IMG/VR virus record: IMGVR_UViG_2660238346_000032 | Coordinates: 1 to 7,472 of that record | DNA: 7,472 bases | Origin: a virus | Lineage: Duplodnaviria; Heunggongvirae; Uroviricota; Caudoviricetes | Strand: one strand, 5' to 3' | Shown here: positions 1 to 7,472 of the stretch, piece after piece | Numbering within the stretch: position 1 is the first letter of the stretch | Layout: every line of letters begins with the position of its first letter | Made by a program: the position numbers and the translations under genes | The notes under the pieces: model-generated | Told to the model about the DNA's origin: nothing | The model's input: the letters and a program-made list of their open reading frames with translations, nothing else | Databases searched by the model: none

Positions 1-74
1 TCCGTAACGCCTCTGCCACGCGCGTAACGTGACAGGGATTAAGGGTAAACTAATTGATTTTGCAAGTTTTTATT

Positions 75-1361
75 TTACCCAGCTTTCTTATGGGGCATAC
101 ATGGGACACTTTCAGATAGTCTTTTGTTAAGGAGTTCTGTCTGTTCGTGATTGTTGTCTTTCATCCATGCTCCGTAAACATTGAATACCATTTGTGCGTT
201 TGTGTGGCCCATCTGGCTTGCGATAAAACTAGGATTAGCTCCTGCGGCAAGTGACCAGCATGCATAAGTATGCCTGGATTGGTACGATTTTCTGTGTCTC
301 AGACCTGCGCGTTTTAAGATACTTGTCCATGACTCCCTGATGGAGTCAACCTTGTAGTGAGGTCCGGACAACTGCTGCTGTTTTGTTACCTGAGGACTAA
401 AAACAAAAGTGCATTTATGCACAGCAGTTCTCCCATATTCCCTCTGCTTCACCTCTACAGAATGTTGCTTTCCAAGCATGGTCATTTCCGCCTGGCTTTT
501 AAGAGCATCAATAGCTGGTTGAACCAGATGAATTGTCCTTCCGGTGCCTGCATCGGTTTTTGGTGGAGTGAATTCGCCAAGTTTTGTATAATTTCTACGG
601 ATGGTTATAGTCCTTGCTTTAAGGTCTATATCTTCCCATGCCAGCGATACCAACTCCCCGTGACGAATACCCGTGTATACAGCGAGAATCCACAGGTTTT
701 TTGTTTGTTGATGACGGCAAGCCTCAATAAAACGAATAAATTCGTCACGGGTGAGAGGATCTGGTTTTACCTTGGACTTTTTTAAGGGAGCCAGACCGTT
801 AAATGGGTTTCCTGAGGTATAACCATTATCTGTTGCAAATTGAAACATTCCAGCTATGGTTGTCATATAGTAGTTTACCGTGACCACTGAGCGCCCTTTT
901 ATGGAAGAAGTCTTTCCATTAGAAAGCTTTTGGTAACCGGTCAACAAATCTCTCCTTACGAAAAGTAAATCCTCTTTTGTTATGGATGAAACCAGTTTTT
1001 TTTCACCTAACATTGGTAACATGTTTTTAATTACTGACTGGTAACGGTTAAGTGCATTCGCACAAATCTCAATTTTCTTAAGGTCCAACCATTTTTCCGA
1101 AAGTGCCTTAACGGTTATCTCTCTTTTTCCCAGACCAAAGTGTTTCAGGTTAGGGGAATTAGGGAACTGCGCGGCATAGTCGAAACTCCCCATTCTGATT
1201 GCAAAACAAACGGAAGTGCGAAGTTCACCAGCGATCTTCCGGTTTTTGGCTGTGTCAGGAACACCGAGGTTTTCTCTGACACGTTTGCCATTATAGTGAA
1301 ACCATATACGGAGTGATCCTCCATGGTTTTCAACGCCTGTCGGGTATGATGCGTTACTCAT
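75..1361 (-). CDS. int: Phage tyrosine integrase (lambdoid prophage Int, IntR-like)
   Basis: 428-aa ORF. ATG at 1361..1359 is preceded by GGGAGG with a 5-nt spacer. C-terminal region carries the tyrosine-recombinase catalytic signature (TGIRHGEL, SRHTYAC, MGHTNAQMVFNVYGAW, i.e. R / HxxR / Y). Overall architecture resembles E. coli Rac-type IntR as recalled from memory. It is the first gene at the left end of the block, as expected for a prophage integrase. Confidence 0.9.
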   Translation of the reverse strand: MSNASYPTGVENHGGSLRIWFHYNGKRVRENLGVPDTAKNRKIAGELRTSVCFAIRMGSFDYAAQFPNSPNLKHFGLGKREITVKALSEKWLDLKKIEICANALNRYQSVIKNMLPMLGEKKLVSSITKEDLLFVRRDLLTGYQKLSNGKTSSIKGRSVVTVNYYMTTIAGMFQFATDNGYTSGNPFNGLAPLKKSKVKPDPLTRDEFIRFIEACRHQQTKNLWILAVYTGIRHGELVSLAWEDIDLKARTITIRRNYTKLGEFTPPKTDAGTGRTIHLVQPAIDALKSQAEMTMLGKQHSVEVKQREYGRTAVHKCTFVFSPQVTKQQQLSGPHYKVDSIRESWTSILKRAGLRHRKSYQSRHTYACWSLAAGANPSFIASQMGHTNAQMVFNVYGAWMKDNNHEQTELLNKRLSESVPCMPHKKAG

Positions 1362-1394
1362 TAAACCTCCCAGACGTCCAGGAGCATTAACAGG

Positions 1395-1649
1395 TTAACC
1401 GGAACTTGCATTTTTGGCACCTGGTTGTTTCTGGTTTTCGATCCATCGCATAATTTCTTCGATGTTGTACAGGCATTCACTGTAGTGCCCCGGATCACCT
1501 TCTACAGCGTAATGGCGGTATTCTTTTCCCTGCATCCATGACTTTCTTCTTGCCCGCTCAATGGTGCCAGGCTTTAGCCCTGTTGATGCAATGAGGACTC
1601 TCTCCGTACACCATTTGCTGGGGGTTATCTGATAGATGATTGTCTGCAT
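1395..1649 (-). CDS. xis: Putative excisionase / excisionase-like DNA-binding protein
   Basis: 84-aa ORF immediately upstream of int with a 33-nt gap, in the same orientation. ATG at 1649 is preceded by GAGGT. Small basic protein (WCTERV, ERARRKSW, GKEYRHYA) in the canonical xis position. Family assignment rests on position and size, not on a verified alignment. Confidence 0.55.
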   Translation of the reverse strand: MQTIIYQITPSKWCTERVLIASTGLKPGTIERARRKSWMQGKEYRHYAVEGDPGHYSECLYNIEEIMRWIENQKQPGAKNASSG

Positions 1650-1667
1650 GCCAACCTCATAAAATTT

Positions 1668-1802
1668 TCATCCACGGCAGTGGCACCACACGTCAAACAT
1701 TCGCTTCACAACTTCACGACAGTAGAAGCCGTCAACATCTCGCGTCAGGTCATAGCGATTGCCGTAACGCTGGTGGACCCATCGTTCAAATGCTTTATTC
1801 AT
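1668..1802 (-). CDS. Small hypothetical protein (44 aa, Cys/His-containing), not in the supplied ORF track
   Basis: Hand translation of the minus strand gives MNKAFERWVHQRYGNRYDLTRDVDGFYCREVVKRMFDVWCHCRG with a TGA stop at 1668..1670. ATG at 1802..1800 is preceded by AAGGAAG with about a 7-nt spacer. It fills the gap between the upstream gene stop (1806..1808) and the xis start exactly. Three Cys and two His (C28, C41, H42, C43, H10) could form a small metal-binding site. Confidence 0.4.
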   Translation of the reverse strand: MNKAFERWVHQRYGNRYDLTRDVDGFYCREVVKRMFDVWCHCRG

Positions 1803-1805
1803 TCT

Positions 1806-2048
1806 TTACTTCCTTTTTATGGCTCGTAATTTTTTCAGGTGCTTTTCCTGCTCAGTGTCCGCGAGAATTTTGCGGTACTCCTGGTGGTCAATATGTTCGA
1901 ACAGGCTGTTGAACTCAGTGATGCGTACCCGCCCGGATCGTCCGTCCATCCGTCGAAAGAACACTGAGTGCTCAGTGATGCGAGTAATCACCACGGGGTA
2001 TCCGGCTCTGTCCGTGTATATCTGCCCGCGTTGAATCAAAGCGAACAT
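1806..2048 (-). CDS. Hypothetical phage protein (80 aa from ATG 2048; track ORF extends to a TTG at 2084)
   Basis: ORF in the same orientation and tightly packed. The first ATG is at 2048..2046 (MFALIQRGQIYTDRAGYPVVITRITEH...), preceded by a weak GGGGA SD. The track's longer 92-aa form starts at a TTG with no SD. Contains an internal RITE(H/F) repeat. No family recognised. Confidence 0.5.
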   Translation of the reverse strand: MFALIQRGQIYTDRAGYPVVITRITEHSVFFRRMDGRSGRVRITEFNSLFEHIDHQEYRKILADTEQEKHLKKLRAIKRK

Positions 2049-2132
2049 GTGGTTATCCCCATCGACAAATCGAGTACACAACAAACGCTGCTGCGAATAC
2101 CATCCCCAGAGTTACGATTGCATCAGGCCAGC

Positions 2133-2498
2133 TCATTGATTCACCTCCTGCGGCGGCTCCGGTAGCGGCATCCAGTGGGTTACTTTCGATGCCGGTTCTT
2201 CCCCATTGTCAGTAACTGCCCACCATTTGTTTCTCGAACAATCGTAATACCCTTCGAAGGTATCGCACTCAGTCCAGCCGTAAGACTTACCCCAACACCA
2301 AACATACTGTTTATCGTTCGGCATTCGCTCACTACAGCTTATCCAGCCATCCGTAGTTACCGGAGAATTGCCAGCCTTGCGCATGGCAATCTCCATGATT
2401 TCAACCATATCCCCTGGTGGAATTTTACAATGCTGACCAGTATGCCTCTGCTGTCTGGCATATTCGAGGATGTGCTCCAGCTTGGTACGATTAATCAT
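2133..2498 (-). CDS. DUF551-domain phage protein
   Basis: 121-aa ORF. The C-terminal half (WISCSERMP ... VTHWMPLPEPP) matches the characteristic DUF551 W...W / THWMPLPEPP pattern seen in many enterobacterial prophage proteins. ATG at 2498 overlaps the upstream stop as ATGA and is preceded by GGGAGA. Confidence 0.7.
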   Translation of the reverse strand: MINRTKLEHILEYARQQRHTGQHCKIPPGDMVEIMEIAMRKAGNSPVTTDGWISCSERMPNDKQYVWCWGKSYGWTECDTFEGYYDCSRNKWWAVTDNGEEPASKVTHWMPLPEPPQEVNQ

Positions 2499-3004
2499 GA
2501 TTTATCTCCCTTAAGCATGGCAGCGCGGCAGGCATCCTCTACGCCCTTAACTGCATCTGCGCAGTAGTTATAGCGATTGCATTCCACTAACTTCTGCTTG
2601 AGATTTTCAATTGATTGCGCGATATCAGCCTGTATTACCGGAGCTGGCGGAACGGCTGTCTGCACTCGAACGTCATCAGGTACTACCGGCTCTACTGCCA
2701 ACTGACTGGCATATTTGTTAATGGTAACGATAAGCTCTTGCTCGGCCTCATCCAGACAATCACCGATACCTCGCCTGTCACCATCAAAATCATCGAAATC
2801 GGCGCGAATCCTGGCAACCTCCCGGATTGCGGACAACACCTCACCAGGAATTACCGTAGAGTTGCCCGATAGTACATTCTGCTCCAGTGATGCCAGTGCA
2901 ATCCGTGCCAGCTCACGAATCTCACCGCCGTCTATATCGTCAATGTCATCACGGCCAGAAATGTTAGCCAGCCATTGCAGTCGCTCTTTGGTAATAGTGA
3001 TCAT
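2495..3004 (-). CDS. Hypothetical acidic phage protein (169 aa)
   Basis: ATG at 3004 overlaps the upstream gene stop as ATGA and is preceded by AAGGAA. Strongly acidic composition (DDIDDIDGGE, ADFDDFDGD). N-terminus MITITKERL resembles the N-terminus of the 101-aa protein at 4179..4484. Confidence 0.6.
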   Translation of the reverse strand: MITITKERLQWLANISGRDDIDDIDGGEIRELARIALASLEQNVLSGNSTVIPGEVLSAIREVARIRADFDDFDGDRRGIGDCLDEAEQELIVTINKYASQLAVEPVVPDDVRVQTAVPPAPVIQADIAQSIENLKQKLVECNRYNYCADAVKGVEDACRAAMLKGDKS

Positions 3005-3516
3005 GCCGCGTTTCCTTCTTCCTTATTAACAATTACACCGTCATATATTTCATTAAGGTGCCCTCTCAACTCCATGCGCCTTAATGCAGATAACATGTAA
3101 TCGCATTCAACCTGCTTATTCCCAGTAAATGGCTTATCGTCAGGATTACCCCAACAGCAATTACCCCTGGGCCATCCATGTACTTTCCGTACTCTTCCGT
3201 TAACAACGTGAAGTAATCCCCAGCCGGGAGGTAAATCCTCAACTGAAATAATTTCCGGCTCACTAATAAAGAATCGCCAGTCGCCCATGCCAAGTGAGGG
3301 ATTTTTACGGAAACGCTTTTTTCTATCTGCCAACAAGTCAGCACGAGAACACTTCGCTTCTATCAGGCATGATGCTGAATTTCTGAATCCCATAGCATCT
3401 GGCTGTTCTCCGGTACTGGTTACAGCTATAAAGCGGTCATGAAAACAAACCTTGAACCCGTTGCGCTTAAGGAACTTGTACGCAATCTGACAGAGTTCGC
3501 GGTGTGTTAACGCCAT
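3001..3516 (-). CDS. Putative PD-(D/E)xK-fold nuclease-like protein (171 aa)
   Basis: The track ORF runs to 3597 but would overlap the upstream gene by about 80 nt. ATG at 3516..3514 (MALTHRELCQ...) is preceded by AAGGAGAG and lies 1 nt after the upstream stop. Motif E7 ... G-E-Q-P-D40 ... L-I-E53-A-K55 has the spacing (12 residues between D and ExK) and context of Hjc/VRR-NUC/RecB-like PD-(D/E)xK nucleases. The C-terminal roughly 90 aa (GWGLLHVVNGR ... CCWGNPDD) is unrecognised. Confidence 0.55.
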   Translation of the reverse strand: MALTHRELCQIAYKFLKRNGFKVCFHDRFIAVTSTGEQPDAMGFRNSASCLIEAKCSRADLLADRKKRFRKNPSLGMGDWRFFISEPEIISVEDLPPGWGLLHVVNGRVRKVHGWPRGNCCWGNPDDKPFTGNKQVECDYMLSALRRMELRGHLNEIYDGVIVNKEEGNAA

Positions 3517-3517
3517 A

Positions 3518-4192
3518 TCACTCTCCTTTGATGCGAATGCCAGCGGCGCGTGGCACATTAACTTCCACGATGCGCACAGTTGGTTTGTACATCTCAATCG
3601 CTGTCAGCCAGTCAGCGCCAGTCATGCGCTTTTCTGCATCGCCATTAGTCCACTTAACCGGTACACCAATAGCCTTCATCGCGATTTCTATTTCCCCGGC
3701 AATGGCGCTTTTTCCGCAACCAGTAAAACCAGAAACAACGACAAGAACTTCACCTTTGGCTGGTTTTATTTCCCGTGCTTCCAGTTCAGCAATACGCTTA
3801 CTTCCATCCGAGATAACACCTTCGTAATACTCACGCTGCTCGTTGAGTTTTGATTTTGCCGACTCCAGTTGTTTTGTTAGTTCCGCAATACGGCAAACAT
3901 CGTTGATACGCGTTTCCTCTAATGCGTTGATCTCATCCAGTAGTGCCAAAGCAACCTTTGGATTAAAGGCAGCAATAAATTCAGCGTTTGCGTAAGCCTG
4001 AGCATCTGTTTCAACCAGGCAGTTAACATGACATTCTGCAATCACGCCACCGGGTTCTCCTTTCCATTTTTGGCAAACAAAAACTCCTGTTAAATTGCCG
4101 TGCTGGTTAACAGATGTATGCCCTACGATGTAGCTTCCTTTAGTTGCTTTCTCTGCCTTTTCACGCAGTGCCTGATAGTTAATCTCGCTCAC
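3518..4192 (-). CDS. Ea22-like (Ead/Ea22 family) protein with coiled-coil and P-loop-like C-terminal module
   Basis: The most plausible start is GTG at 4192..4190, preceded by a perfect AAGGAGG with a 6-nt spacer. The track's 4234 start is a TTG without an SD. N-terminus SEINYQALREKAEKATKG ... AEFIAAFNPKVALALLDE resembles the Ead/Ea22-like N-terminal domain as recalled from memory. The central segment is heptad-like (LEETRINDVCRIAELTKQLESAKSKLNEQREYYE). The C-terminus contains VLVVVSGFTGCGKSAIAGEIEIAMKAIG, i.e. a strand plus GxxxxGKS Walker-A-like loop plus helix. Confidence 0.65.
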   Translation of the reverse strand: MSEINYQALREKAEKATKGSYIVGHTSVNQHGNLTGVFVCQKWKGEPGGVIAECHVNCLVETDAQAYANAEFIAAFNPKVALALLDEINALEETRINDVCRIAELTKQLESAKSKLNEQREYYEGVISDGSKRIAELEAREIKPAKGEVLVVVSGFTGCGKSAIAGEIEIAMKAIGVPVKWTNGDAEKRMTGADWLTAIEMYKPTVRIVEVNVPRAAGIRIKGE

Positions 4193-4484
4193 TGGCTGCC
4201 TCCTTTGCTGGGCTTTCGAATATATCAAACTCAAACAACTTAACTACGTCATCAAACAGGACATAATCGCCATCAGAATCTTCAGTCATGTCAGCGCCAC
4301 AATCCTGACCGAACGAGTCACAACCACCCATATCAAGCTCGTATCGCTTGAGTTTTGCGATATTTGATAAATTCAGCGCCAGTACAGCAAGGTCATAAAC
4401 CTCGTCAGCGGTATACCCTGCACCATGCCCATACATTTCAATGCGGGATATGATTTCTTCTACACGTTGTTTTGTGATTGTCAT
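4179..4484 (-). CDS. Hypothetical highly acidic small protein (101 aa)
   Basis: ATG at 4484 overlaps the upstream stop as ATGA and is preceded by GGGAGGTGA. I count roughly 23 Asp/Glu against 9 Lys/Arg, with an acidic C-terminal tail (DMTEDSDGDYVLFDDVVKLFEFDIFE). N-terminal MTITKQRV resembles the N-terminus of the 2495..3004 protein. Confidence 0.6.
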   Translation of the reverse strand: MTITKQRVEEIISRIEMYGHGAGYTADEVYDLAVLALNLSNIAKLKRYELDMGGCDSFGQDCGADMTEDSDGDYVLFDDVVKLFEFDIFESPAKEAASERD

Positions 4485-4966
4485 TTTTGCTCACCTCCCT
4501 GTTCTTCCAGAAAAATACGCATAGCCTCAAGCATCTCTTCGGTGTCATACGGTGACAACTTGTCACGCAGGATGTGTTCAATGCTGTTAACGAACTTGCG
4601 GATTGCTTTGCGTTCAATTTCAGCCAGGAAAGCGTCTGTAGCCGGGGTTTGCGGCATACCTCCGTCTGTTGCGCAGATATACGCATCAGATAGTTCATCC
4701 TGCTCGCCATCAAACACGTAGCAACTCTGTACGATAAATTTATTCAGCCCCGCACTCTCCGCTGCCAGCGCCGCGCACTTGGCCTCAAGGTTATCAATCG
4801 TGATTCCAGCAGAACGACACTCCCGCAACGCCGTTTCTAGTTTTGATTCAAGTTCACCGAACTTACGGACAAGATATTCAGCGTTTGTTTCGTTAACCTT
4901 TAAATCTCGGGGGATGCATTTACCTTTCAGAAATCCATCCATCTCAATTAGTGACATTTGTTTCAT
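4481..4966 (-). CDS. Hypothetical acidic phage protein (161 aa)
   Basis: ATG at 4966 is preceded by GGAG. It is the first gene after a 171-bp gap and is followed by ATGA-coupled downstream genes. Acidic, with a predicted helical/coiled-coil central segment. No family recognised. Confidence 0.6.
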
Positions 4967-5137
4967 TTCTTCCCACTCCGCAACATCGCATTCAGATATT
5001 TGTTTTGATTTACTGATGGAAAAGAATTTCTCTTAAGCAATTCCTCTCTCGATGGCATTGGCTTTACGCGTTGGTGAATAATCATTTCTGCCGGAAGAAT
5101 GCCGGGGTTGTATGCAAGTCATCTCATGGTAAATTCC

Positions 5138-5431
5138 TCAGTCATTACTGATAGCGCCATAGCGTGATCGGTAATTACGCAGGCGCGGGTCAATTTCAGG
5201 GAAGTGGGTATATGTGGCTTTGCGGAATGGTCGGATTGATGTCTGGTAAATTCGCTCGCGTTCTTCTTTCTCTGCAAGCCATATACAATGGCGAAATTCC
5301 TTTTCCTCTTTCGTTTCCTGCGGTAGCGACATTATCCGGTCGTAGTTTTTTCTGAATTTATCCAGCACCTCCGATACGGAATTGCCGGAACAGCGGCGCG
5401 CGTCGTCCGCACCATAGAGAGGCGCTGGCAT
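5138..5431 (-). CDS. Hypothetical phage protein (97 aa)
   Basis: ATG at 5431 is preceded by AGGAG with a 7-nt spacer, 13 nt downstream of the ssb stop. Charged protein (KEEKEFRHCIWLAEKEERER). No family recognised. Confidence 0.55.
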   Translation of the reverse strand: MPAPLYGADDARRCSGNSVSEVLDKFRKNYDRIMSLPQETKEEKEFRHCIWLAEKEERERIYQTSIRPFRKATYTHFPEIDPRLRNYRSRYGAISND

Positions 5432-5444
5432 GATTTTCTCCTGA

Positions 5445-5951
5445 TTAAATTGCGTGAATAGCGTGACGAGGGAAGGGGAGAGTTACTGGTGCAAAGGGTA
5501 TATCGTCGTCAAAATCCATCGGAGGTTCGTTGTGTTGTGCTGGTGATGATTGCTGCTGTGGCTTCTGTGATTGCCTGCTGGCTGCTTGTTGTTTGCTGTC
5601 GCCAATGCCGCCAAGCATTTGCATCACGCCATTAATTCCGACATGAACCTCGGTTGTGTAACGGTCTTGCCCTGACTGGTCTTTCCACTTTCTGGTTCTC
5701 AGCATTCCCTCGAAATAAATCTGATCACCTTTTTTCACATACTGCCCCACGACCCCAGCCAGTTTCCCGGATACAGCAACACGATACCATTCAGTCAATT
5801 CCTTTTGCTCGCCAGTATTTTTATCTCGCCATTGTTCTGACGTGGCTATTGTCAGGTTAGCGAACGCTGTACCTGATGGTGAGTATCGAACTTCCGGGTC
5901 TTGTCCTACCCGACCAAGGATAATCACCTTATTTATCCCGCGAGAACTCAT
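5445..5951 (-). CDS. ssb: Single-stranded DNA-binding protein (prophage SSB) with atypical C-terminal extension
   Basis: Probable start is ATG at 5951..5949 ([23 protein letters not shown]...), preceded by GAGGTGGAG. The track start at 5960 is a GTG three codons upstream. The OB-fold region aligns closely with E. coli SSB ([23 protein letters not shown] ... [19 protein letters not shown]) as recalled from memory, followed by a Q/S/P-rich linker and the conserved acidic tip [11 protein letters not shown]. The ORF then continues 15 codons ([15 protein letters not shown]) before TAA at 5445..5447. Confidence 0.9.
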
Positions 5952-6415
5952 TTGCTCCACCTCTTGCCAGTTTTTATGTTGCTTATAATTGATTGAGATA
6001 CACCCATGTCTTTTGCTATCTTGTACTGACTCTCTTTTTCAGAGAGTCTTTTCCTGATTTCTATAACCTGCCACTCTGTTAATTTTGCACCATGATGAGC
6101 ATGACCTTTTTTTGCTCCACGATGCCTTCCTTTTGCTATCTTGTCGTCCATGTTTTCTTGCGCGCTACCTAAAAAGAGATGTTCAGGATTAACGCAGCAT
6201 GGGTTATCGCATTTGTGGCAAACCATCTTCCCAGATGGGATGGGGGAGTGATAAAGCTCAAAAGCAACCCGATGAGAAAGCATTGTTACGCCAAAGGCTA
6301 CAAATTTTGTGTATCCTCCTTTGTTTTTTGAATAGGTAGACTCCCAGCAACCTGTTGTTTCATTAACTTTGTAGCTGGACTCGAATCTTTTAATAATTCC
6401 GTCCAAGTGAGACAT
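5948..6415 (-). CDS. HNH endonuclease (HNH_3-type homing-endonuclease-like) with C-terminal putative DNA-binding region
   Basis: 155-aa [17 protein letters not shown] ... [42 protein letters not shown] matches the phage HNH_3 pattern (GCWE, KGGY, HR, CH.CDN..C.NP.HL). ATG at 6415..6413 abuts the upstream TAA stop (6416..6418). Its TGA stop (5948..5950) overlaps the ssb ATG as ATGA. Confidence 0.85.
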
Positions 6416-7123
6416 TTATGCCGCCTGTTTTAGTTCGTTAACTCTGATGTTCATTACATGAACGCATTTAGCCTGCGCATCCTCATTGCCAGCCATTAAT
6501 TGCCAGTCATGCTGATAACGTTCGATGAGTTTTTTCTTGTCAGTTTCTGTCGACGCATAATCGCTGAAGTCTTTCAGGATTTGTTCGCAGTCAACCGATG
6601 GAGATTTCTGGTTGGTATTTTCTGGTGATGGTTGATTGCCAGATGCTGGTATTGCCCATCCCGGCAGCGATGGAGGGGACCAGTAAAATCCTGTTCCATC
6701 CTTAAGTTTTTCCCTGTGCCATCCCTGCTTTTTATCGAGAGATGTTTGTGCGAAACCTTCCTCAAGGTTATACAGATACCGACCGATTCCCCACTGAACG
6801 GCAGCGCGCTTCATTGCACTGGAACGACCACCTTTTACGGCTTCTACCTGCGTGTTTTCAGCAGCATCCCATTTGGTTACCCATTCGGAATCAATCCTGA
6901 TTGATATGCCGCATTCAACGCCTCCGTTGTTGGGAATATCGCGGTATTCATTGCGCCATCCTGCTTTGCCGCAAACATCGTCCAGGCGTTTCATGATTGC
7001 CCTGTTCGTGACATAAGCCAGCACCATAGCCCACACCTTTCCATCGCGTGTTTTACCGCTTTGCTGTATTCGCCATTCGATATCTTCAGGGCTGAATGGC
7101 TCATCGAATTTATTCAAATCCAT
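6416..7123 (-). CDS. Single-strand annealing protein / phage recombinase, Rad52(Sak)-like
   Basis: 235-aa ORF. ATG at 7123 is preceded by GAGGTGA with a 5-nt spacer. Segment YVTNRAIMKRLDDVCGKAGW aligns position-for-position with the Rad52 core [20 protein letters not shown], and AMKRAAVQWGIGRYLY matches the conserved SSAP motif. It sits next to ssb, as in a recombination module. Confidence 0.7.
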   Translation of the reverse strand: MDLNKFDEPFSPEDIEWRIQQSGKTRDGKVWAMVLAYVTNRAIMKRLDDVCGKAGWRNEYRDIPNNGGVECGISIRIDSEWVTKWDAAENTQVEAVKGGRSSAMKRAAVQWGIGRYLYNLEEGFAQTSLDKKQGWHREKLKDGTGFYWSPPSLPGWAIPASGNQPSPENTNQKSPSVDCEQILKDFSDYASTETDKKKLIERYQHDWQLMAGNEDAQAKCVHVMNIRVNELKQAA

Positions 7124-7131
7124 AATTCACC

Positions 7132-7302
7132 TCAGAATGGACATAGCCCAAGGAAATAACGCTGATTTAATACTTCGACTCGGGACAAATTAAGGCATAC
7201 CCGCATTCCTTCGCGGTCACCATTATGGCGATACCAGAGAGCTTTCTGCGTGTATATGCGTCTCTGTAACTTGCTCTCCTTCACTGTGGTTGCAAGTGAC
7301 AT
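7132..7302 (-). CDS. Small hypothetical protein (56 aa) or remnant of a gene disrupted by the adjacent IS
   Basis: ATG at 7302..7300 (MSLATTVKESKLQRRIYTQKALWYRHNGDREGMRVCLNLSRVEVLNQRYFLGLCPF) is preceded by AGGAGA with a 5-nt spacer. The track start at 7338 is a GTG that lies inside the presumed IS end. The ORF stops 8 nt before the SSAP start. Confidence 0.35.
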   Translation of the reverse strand: MSLATTVKESKLQRRIYTQKALWYRHNGDREGMRVCLNLSRVEVLNQRYFLGLCPF

Positions 7303-7312
7303 GAATATCTCC

Positions 7313-7472
7313 TGAGGTAGCCTGAGTTTAACGGACACTCCTTCCTGAAATAGAATGGCATCAGAAGGAGCTAATAATGAGCAGAAAAACCCAACGTTAC
7401 TCTAAAGAGTTCAAAGCCGAAGCTGTCAGAACGGTTCTTGAAAATCAACTTTCGATCAGTGAAGGCGCTTCC
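7313..7472 (+). mobile_element. IS3-family insertion sequence, left end (partial; continues beyond window)
   Basis: A divergently oriented transposase OrfA begins at 7377. The roughly 65 bp upstream begins TGAGGTAGCC..., consistent with the TG-initiated left inverted repeat typical of IS3-family elements. The exact boundary at about 7313 is approximate. It resembles an IS600-like element from memory, which I could not verify. Confidence 0.6.
7377..7472 (+). CDS. IS3-family transposase OrfA (N-terminal 32 codons; truncated by window edge)
   Basis: ATG at 7377 is preceded by AAGGAG with about a 7-nt spacer. The translation MSRKTQRYSKEFKAEAVRTVLENQLSISEGAS has the N-terminal helix-turn-helix pattern (SxEFKxEAV ... 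LS.SE.A) of IS3-family OrfA proteins. Confidence 0.8.
   Translation, partial: MSRKTQRYSKEFKAEAVRTVLENQLSISEGAS

Follow-up and report, generated by a model that had tools for sequence, protein, structure and literature searches.

The window analysed here is a stretch of 7,472 nucleotides (nt) from a virus of the Caudoviricetes (IMG/VR record IMGVR_UViG_2660238346_000032, positions 1 to 7,472), and its open reading frames (ORFs), with their Pfam and PHROG matches, show that, read on the minus strand, it represents the early-left arm of a prophage of lambdoid or P22-like type. Between the gene for a Rad52-type single-strand annealing protein (SSAP) and ssb, the gene for the single-stranded DNA-binding protein (SSB), lies an ORF of the HNH_3 family, referred to below as the HNH gene. 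We propose that this ORF is probably a free-standing homing endonuclease gene of the HNH_3 or I-HmuI-like type, and one of a lineage specialised on the 5' end of ssb of the bacterial type in temperate phages. A first-pass annotation of the same DNA had already seen in it the footprint of a free-standing homing-type endonuclease, and that view is supported by alleles that lack the gene, by a rewritten patch of ssb linked to it, by the divergent ssb backgrounds in which it occurs and by a second lineage at the same place. Established directly are the gene itself, its family and predicted fold, its presence in some alleles and absence from others, the patch and how it is linked to the gene, the occurrence of the cassette beside divergent ssb sequences, and the association of the whole clade with ssb.

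The genes follow one another on the minus strand in the order SSAP, HNH, ssb, abc2. The left edge of the insertion is the SSAP stop, with TAA 6418..6416 followed directly by the HNH ATG at 6415..6413, and at the other end the HNH stop TGA (5950..5948) shares three bases with the ssb ATG (5951..5949) in an ATGA overlap; both contacts had been described in the first-pass annotation and both are borne out. The true start of ssb is ATG 5951, as in the annotated ssb of homologous loci, and an in-frame GTG at 5960 had been used in the ORF listing. The codons AAG AGG TGG (K-R-W) at the HNH 3' end form a Shine-Dalgarno-like sequence for ssb, and AAR-AGG-TGG is present in all ssb-linked lineages. The HNH gene is free-standing in that it lies outside any intron or intein, as an ORF of its own bounded by the TAA-ATG and ATGA junctions. 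An intron-encoded endonuclease was ruled out, as an Rfam scan of the window at E<=1 returned zero families and no intron, and filled and empty alleles differ by a plain ORF. A packaging HNH protein like HK97 gp74 was also rejected, the neighbours being SSAP, ssb, abc2, ead/Ea22 and integrase genes and not terminase or cos.

By a profile score above the curated threshold (51 bits against a cut-off of 24.8) the protein is a member of HNH_3 (PF13392), the I-HmuI-like His-Me finger family. It also matches PHROG HNH-endonuclease families, down to E=1.8e-33, and gives a partial match, below the cut-off (22.1 bits against 27), to zf-His_Me_endon, the zinc-binding loop of homing endonucleases; a search of NCBIfam gave no useful match and a sequence search of the Protein Data Bank (PDB) nothing meaningful. 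HNH_3 and zf-His_Me_endon form group 2 of the His-Me finger superfamily, a large group presented as homing endonucleases (PMC5714182). Homologues of the protein number 400 at E<=1e-10, and across 69 homologues residues C23, R49, H67, C69, D70, C74, N76, H79 and N88 never vary. If the protein works like I-HmuI and I-PpoI, H67 is the putative catalytic residue, D70 and N88 are putative metal ligands, and C66, C69, C74 and H79 putative zinc ligands.

An AlphaFold (AF2) model of the protein (pLDDT 90.7) combines a sheet at the N-terminus with a beta-beta-alpha core and a C-terminal helix-turn-helix (HTH) of three helices, with strands at residues 64-67 and 80-83, a helix at 85-94 and three C-terminal helices within 114-149. 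Its best fold matches in the PDB are I-HmuI (E=5e-4) and I-PpoI, at a probability of 1.0 and a TM score of only about 0.39, a low value of the kind expected for extended multi-domain proteins. The predicted structure contains a beta-beta-alpha-metal fold with the conserved catalytic His and metal-binding Asn/Asp, to which a separate predicted DNA-binding module, the HTH of residues 111-152, is joined; in a fold search this HTH matches those of serine recombinases and other regulators, and its Pfam matches are weak. On these grounds we infer nuclease activity. Comparison with a 74%-identical HNH lineage gives a pN of 0.19 and a pS of 0.78 with synonymous sites saturated (pN/pS 0.24), and all 28 sampled copies are intact, their variable sites being eight synonymous and four non-synonymous. 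To judge from these sequences, the gene is under purifying selection.

Empty and filled junctions and the rewritten start of ssb

The first-pass annotation had proposed that related prophages be searched for SSAP-ssb modules without the HNH gene. Such modules are found, are near-identical to the filled ones and form the majority, and the empty site can be read in them directly as GGCATAA followed by ATGGCAAGCAGAGGCGTAAATAAGG, with the SSAP stop directly on the ssb start (TAA-ATG). SSAP and ssb adjoin directly, with no HNH gene, in mEp235, mEpX2 and HK75 at 97-98% identity and in epsilon34 and g341c at 90%; in mEp235 and HK75 the junction reads ...AAACAGGCGGCATAAATGGCAAGCAGAGGCGTAAATAAGGTGATT..., and between empty and filled loci the flanks are 97-99% identical. 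Among 5,426 complete Escherichia coli genomes the module was found in 454 places in 420 genomes, with up to 4 places per genome, and the HNH gene in 45 places in 41 genomes, all of them beside ssb and 98.7-99.6% identical. The exact unrewritten junction, without the gene, occurs in 298 places, which is a lower bound on the number of empty sites. The gene is thus present in about 10% of otherwise near-identical E. coli modules, and in IMG/VR there are 23 filled loci against more than 120 empty ones. This is a presence/absence polymorphism at one same site among close relatives. The HNH gene is not a fixed component of the module, since near-identical modules without it exist and predominate; the fixation that would have spoken against the first-pass proposal is not what we find, HNH-less alleles being the commoner.

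A few of the filled loci, which are numbered here as in our comparison set (L001 onwards), have features of their own. L018 (IMGVR_UViG_2693429642_000001), a contig of 5.4 kb, is 100% identical to the window over SSAP, HNH and ssb, and may be a clonal relative or the source of the window. In L009 (E. coli MFDS1001074) and L010 (E. coli Z1323PEC0012) the insertion sequence ISCro1, of the IS66 family, splits the SSAP gene, at a point some 130 bp ahead of the start of HNH, and leaves HNH, ssb and abc2 whole. The sole truncated E. coli copy of the HNH gene is that of L008 (Z0117EC0133), where it lies at a rearrangement breakpoint.

Comparison of the two alleles revealed that more than the ORF distinguishes them. 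The empty allele reads GGCATAA ATG GCA AGC AGA GGC GTA AAT AAG, encoding MASRGVNK, and the filled allele GGCATAA ATG TCT ...HNH... AGC AA ATG AGT TCT CGC GGG ATA AAT AAG, encoding MSSRGINK. When the window is set against mEp235 or against an empty allele from E. coli, ssb nt 4-16 show 10 changed bases out of 13, against 3 of 491 in the rest of ssb (hypergeometric P ~1e-14, or ~1e-11 allowing for all window positions). The changes in this patch are synonymous at the Ser, Arg and Gly codons and conservative at two others (A to S and V to I), and one of the synonymous changes, AGC to TCT, is a three-base switch between serine codon families. In the E. coli genomes the patch, ATGAGTTCTCGCGGGATA, and the HNH gene are perfectly linked: the rewritten start is found in the same 45 places in 41 genomes, no HNH-less allele has the patch and no HNH+ allele is without it, and the HNH 3' end precedes none of the 298 unrewritten junctions. 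To judge from the aligned alleles, the mobile unit is more than the ORF alone and consists of the ORF together with the rewritten 13-nt patch of ssb. We propose that the patch is an altered target site, which would render the carrier immune.

Other reasons for the patch were considered. Selection to open the translation start of ssb is unsupported, the rewritten start being predicted to fold more stably (-7.7 kcal/mol) than a hypothetical unrewritten one (-4.0 kcal/mol), and neither folding energy is significant against shuffled sequences. Nor is the patch required to end the HNH ORF, which in the unrewritten sequence would stop six codons later at a TAA in GGCGTAAAT. As a separate observation, the patch (UUCUCGCGGG) could pair in part with the Shine-Dalgarno region at the HNH 3' end (CUGGCAAGAGG; window 5925..5973, minus strand). 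The predicted hairpin at the ssb start (-7.7 kcal/mol) could tie ssb translation to ribosomes finishing the HNH gene, although at z=0.21 against shuffles it is not significant.

Distribution of the gene and alternative explanations

Evidence that the gene may move independently of its host genes comes from the ssb sequences beside it. Locus L005, from E. coli 97.3, matches the window at 99.6% identity in the HNH gene and at 100% in the patch but at only 72% in the remainder of ssb, the body of which is of a type shared with Sf6 and further loci that lack HNH. Across ssb bodies that differ to this extent, the HNH gene is identical or 99.6% identical. The crossover to divergent ssb falls at about nt 29, within the first 40 nt, in L005, L025 and L030, and at about nt 80 in L021. 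A comparison of 133 loci shows HNH+ copies with either ssb type (21/74 and 4/59); for 13 of 25 HNH+ loci the closest relative by SSAP has no HNH gene, and the HNH+ loci are polyphyletic on SSAP and on ssb. The history of the gene therefore disagrees with that of the host genes, which points to lateral spread, and the backgrounds of the cassette fit repeated invasion with short and variable co-conversion tracts. The localised gene conversion envisaged in the first-pass annotation is supported only indirectly, by these variable crossovers at about nt 29 and nt 80.

A second lineage was found at the same place in Cronobacter/Citrobacter-type prophages, its HNH protein being 74% identical to that of the window. 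Thirty HNH-less loci with the same SSAP end read ATGGCTAG[C/T]AAAGGC (ATG GCT AG[C/T] AAA GGC), and six filled sites read ATGAGTTCTCGCGGA, with an ssb that begins ATG AGT TCT CGC GGA GTA AAC AAA GTG; the downstream sequence is alike in filled and empty sites. Although synonymous sites of the HNH gene are saturated between the two lineages, the 11 bases after the ssb ATG are identical.

Association with ssb extends to more distant relatives. All 35 loci that have an HNH protein of at least 51% identity and downstream DNA have ssb adjacent, against only 2 of about 95 loci with an identity of 50% or less, the others being scattered over unrelated contexts. Relatives of 51-62% identity lie directly upstream of ssb with stop and start overlapping, and the canonical ATG GCN AGC start of ssb is found in none of the ssb-linked lineages. 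A scan of one genome per species with a profile of the clade found only relatives of 50% identity or less in unrelated contexts, except for two ssb-linked loci in Rhodobacterales. The first-pass annotation had placed the insertion in a conserved SSAP-ssb junction; this is upheld for ssb but not for the SSAP, as the upstream gene may be of Rad52 type, ERF type, RdgC, Gp157 or unknown. On this distribution the conserved partner of the HNH clade is ssb and not the annealing protein, because relatives of at least 51% identity all precede ssb, whatever gene lies upstream.

If the HNH gene acts in homing, it would be expressed from the early-left operon transcript and translated by coupling, through TAA-ATG upstream and ATGA downstream. 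The C-terminal HTH and N-terminal His-Me finger would bind an HNH-less allele and nick or cut it at or near GGCATAA-ATGGCAAGCAGAGGCGTAAA, and repair from the HNH+ copy, by the phage SSAP and SSB or by host recombination, would bring in the 464-nt ORF and the rewritten ssb codons 2-6. The patch would take the target away from the carrier and leave SSB nearly unchanged (MASRGV to MSSRGI), and the HNH 3' end would provide a new ribosome-binding site with which expression of ssb is kept. From the sequences compared we infer where the target lies, that the patch confers immunity and that the gene spreads by conversion.

A number of points weigh against this interpretation. Cleavage, nicking and homing are predictions both for the HNH protein and for every close relative, and free-standing phage endonucleases may cut hundreds of bp from their own gene (PMC2988022). 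Linkage of the patch to the gene is expected from adjacency alone and is no proof of immunity; the informative part of the patch is the density of its changes and their mostly protein-preserving nature. One of those changes, at nt 4, is forced to A by the ATGA overlap, although the others are not forced, and the patch might simply descend from the ssb of the first donor and not be a selected resistance site. Ordinary lambdoid mosaic recombination could also have put the cassette into different ssb backgrounds. None of 93 cultured phage records with the module has the HNH gene; as few of these are independent E. coli phages, we rest no claim on this absence. Finally, no other nuclease is present in 23 of 28 HNH+ modules against 42 of 110 HNH-less ones (82% vs 38%; Fisher P=3.5e-5, with loci that are non-independent), and the same enrichment is seen within one ssb type (P=0.006).

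That enrichment is what a functional module nuclease would predict, and it is possible that the HNH protein is a genuine, perhaps domesticated, nuclease of the recombination (Rec) module, making nicks or ends for SSAP and SSB in place of Exo, RecE or a DnaQ-like exonuclease. Tight packing and translational coupling between SSAP and ssb, purifying selection with none of 28 copies decayed, and a position beside ssb that is kept across 51-100% HNH protein identity would all agree with such a role. A 2025 survey moreover counts HNH as the fourth nuclease type of lambdoid Rec modules, and while it remarks on the apparent mobility of HNH genes, it deems tightly packed ones, such as that of ES18, very likely to be legitimate members (PMC12315714). 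In spite of this we consider a module nuclease unlikely. It would leave unexplained the 10 changes in 13 bases and their recurrence in the second lineage, the gene is present in only about a tenth of otherwise near-identical modules, and the 42 of 110 HNH-less modules without any nuclease indicate that the module needs none. The HNH gene also occurs together with a DnaQ-like exonuclease (L025, L027 and L028) or an Sf6 gp26-type nuclease (L021 and L030), its upstream partner varies among relatives, and the enrichment is built on phylogenetically non-independent loci. A DnaQ-like 3'-5' exonuclease gene lies between ssb and abc2 in 46/110 HNH-less against 3/28 HNH+ modules, the window having none; a strict substitution of HNH for this exonuclease was ruled out, both being present in L025, L027, L028 and L008. 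Service to the module and selfish homing are not mutually exclusive.

The predicted cleavage could instead be mainly a weapon of competition. On induction or infection, HNH-less relatives that share the cell, as residents or by co-infection, would have their ssb region cut and their markers excluded, host ssb might be cut as well, and the copying of the gene would be a side effect. An unrewritten, target-like sequence is common to most related prophages, many E. coli genomes contain several modules, and marker exclusion is documented for the T4 seg and mob homing endonucleases (PMC2988022, PMC2790892). The chromosomal ssb start of E. coli K-12 (ATGGCCAGCAGAGGCGTAAACAAGGTTAT; L175 61..89) agrees with the unrewritten phage start (L001, L007) at 26 of 29 bases, so that host ssb would hold most of any target inside ssb, but it lacks the stretch of the junction that precedes the ATG. 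We see little chance that this is the main function, and it depends on the same predicted cleavage specificity as homing, from which sequence alone cannot part it. The gene might also be passive cargo, an inactive or no longer mobile remnant moved only by ordinary lambdoid mosaic recombination, as the extensive shuffling of flanking genes might suggest and as would fit a single recent origin of the 98.7-99.6% identical E. coli copies. Given the selection on the gene and its conserved architecture this is unlikely, and we give it hardly any credence: pN/pS is 0.24 across HNH lineages, none of the catalytic residues varies, not one of 28 ORFs is broken and the sole truncated copy lies at a rearrangement breakpoint, three loci have their crossover no more than 30 nt from the gene, and the junction is built alike in loci from E. 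coli, Vibrio and Shewanella.

A bolder form of the homing proposal may also be put forward, though we regard it as speculative and rather improbable as a whole. The clade would be an undescribed HNH_3 homing lineage that targets the near-universal 5' coding end of bacterial-type ssb (MASRGVNKV). With the independent nuclease insertions at its 3' end (Sf6 gp26-type and ES18 gp47) taken into account, phage ssb would attract homing at both ends and in this way promote the mosaicism of lambdoid Rec modules, and the HNH "nucleases" of these modules would be parasites of ssb. Host ssb, an essential gene with a start that agrees with the empty site at 26 of 29 bases, would perhaps be cut in lytic growth.

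Features of the region and the 3' end of ssb

The features of the window and of the loci compared with it are collected in Table 1.

Table 1. Positions of genes and sequence elements in the window, followed by features of other loci
Feature	Position	Strand	Basis or remark
Integrase gene	75..1361		minus-strand arm of the window
Ead/Ea22-like and other small genes	between integrase and the abc2 side of the early-left arm		
abc2 anti-RecBCD gene	5138..5431	-	Pfam Anti-RecBCD_p2 E=5.6e-63; downstream member of the recombination module
Phage ssb, 168 amino acids (aa)	5445..5951	-	Pfam SSB E=5.8e-35; host gene of the element
Rewritten patch, ssb nt 4-16	5936..5948	-	AGTTCTCGCGGGA replacing GCAAGCAGAGGCG; allele alignment
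HNH_3 endonuclease ORF, 155 aa, free-standing	5948..6415	-	Pfam HNH_3 E=1.1e-13
Shine-Dalgarno-like GAGGTGGAG for ssb	5955..5963	-	read from the sequence; putative ribosome-binding site
Predicted C-terminal helix-turn-helix module, residues 111-152	5960..6085	-	weak Pfam matches to HTH_38 and CENP-B_N; model
His-Me finger nuclease core, residues 48-89	6149..6274	-	extent of the Pfam HNH_3 match
Rad52/Rad22-type SSAP gene	6416..7123	-	Pfam Rad52_Rad22 E=1.5e-25; PHROG 1097 E=1.3e-127
DnaQ-like 3'-5' exonuclease gene	L001 944..1492; L006 2444..2992; L008 1941..2489		
Gene upstream of HNH in Vibrio phage 1.079.O	L012		ERF-family SSAP
Gene upstream of HNH in Shewanella	L054		unknown
Gene upstream of HNH	L056		RdgC/FtsK-gamma protein
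Gene upstream of HNH	L058		Gp157-like protein

Inside the HNH gene, on the plus strand at 6028..6048, an 8-bp inverted repeat (GACTCTCTTTTTCAGAGAGTC) with a T-rich run resembles an antisense terminator, and the number of such terminator-like sites in the region is not above shuffled expectation.

A second hot spot for insertion lies at the 3' end of ssb (window 5445..5492, minus strand; L002 1501..1980; L003 1501..1968; L094 1164..1685). In the window and in other alleles without a nuclease gene at this end, SSB continues for 15 residues after ...DFDDDIPF, and the canonical C-terminal tip is not terminal. The ssb genes of Sf6 and Huey end directly behind ...DIPF or ...EIPF, their last codons also being rewritten, and the next ORF encodes a 155-159-aa nuclease with the residues CxxC...HHCDYSKP...CHVEWH (Sf6 gp26) that ends in frame with the same 3' codons; Sf6 was said in a 2016 paper to have no homing endonucleases. 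A different nuclease, the HNH_3 protein gp47, which is 35% identical to that of the window, is found at the 3' end of ES18 ssb. In two IMG/VR loci (L021 and L030) an upstream HNH_3 gene and a downstream Sf6 gp26-type gene flank an ssb of about 470 nt on both sides.

Related systems and implications

Comparison with known systems helps to place the element. On the model, its closest structural relative is I-HmuI of Bacillus phage SPO1, which is likewise an HNH_3 protein with a His-Me finger, a zinc-binding loop, an N-terminal nuclease and a C-terminal HTH, and which is the best fold match. I-HmuI, however, lies in a group I intron of a DNA polymerase gene and nicks one strand, whereas the window gene is free-standing; the two proteins are 16% identical over the structural alignment, and no NUMOD or AP2 modules are detectable in the window protein. 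The closest mechanistic analogue of the proposed homing is the intronless homing of T4 Mob and Seg endonucleases. T4 mobE is a free-standing HNH-family gene between nrdA and nrdB, and MobE and other Mob and Seg genes resemble the present one in being free-standing, polymorphic and placed between conserved genes of DNA metabolism operons, and are thought to spread with their flanks by break repair (PMC2790892, PMC2988022). The Mob enzymes differ in being of the classical HNH group with zinc-finger DNA-binding domains, in occurring in virulent T-even phages and in often cutting far from their own gene. The window element is distinguished from Mob and Seg by a temperate lambdoid or P22-like prophage host, a base-exact insertion with overlapping start and stop, a patch at the junction and an ssb-specialised clade.

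ES18 gp47 belongs to the same module, with a Rad52-type SSAP, SSB and Abc2, and is also an HNH_3 protein (E=8.6e-13), but it is encoded downstream of ssb, the ssb start of ES18 is not rewritten, and such genes are treated as probable working members in PMC12315714. HK97 gp74-type proteins are likewise small phage-encoded nucleases of the HNH superfamily, but their genes lie beside terminase and they stimulate cos cleavage, whereas the window gene lies between SSAP and ssb and matches HNH_3 and not the classical HNH model. In the literature covered, from which most subscription-journal papers are missing, we came across neither an HNH gene placed before ssb nor a rewritten junction of this kind. 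The type of element is well known, and the ssb-linked lineage does not seem to have been described.

These results bear on annotation. The HNH genes of lambdoid Rec modules have lately been counted as probable working nucleases, and for the upstream type the population evidence favours selfish insertion, which calls for caution when modules are classified and functions deduced from position. The data also predict a candidate target of about 30 bp, made up of the SSAP stop and ssb start of mEp235 and HK75, and a natural resistant version that differs from it at 10 bases. Almost all mechanistic work on homing so far has been on virulent T-even phages, and cultivable HNH-less phages together with HNH+ prophages, such as those of E. 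coli E2348/69, could provide a simple homing system for temperate coliphages. The ssb-linked clade ranges over Escherichia, Cronobacter/Citrobacter, Vibrio and Shewanella, and if the 5' end of ssb is indeed the target, the element could cross between phages with Rad52-type, ERF-type, RdgC and Gp157 genes. An element that targets the conserved start of ssb may move between phages that are otherwise unrelated, and breakpoints made in this core gene may help to explain the mosaic boundaries found there.

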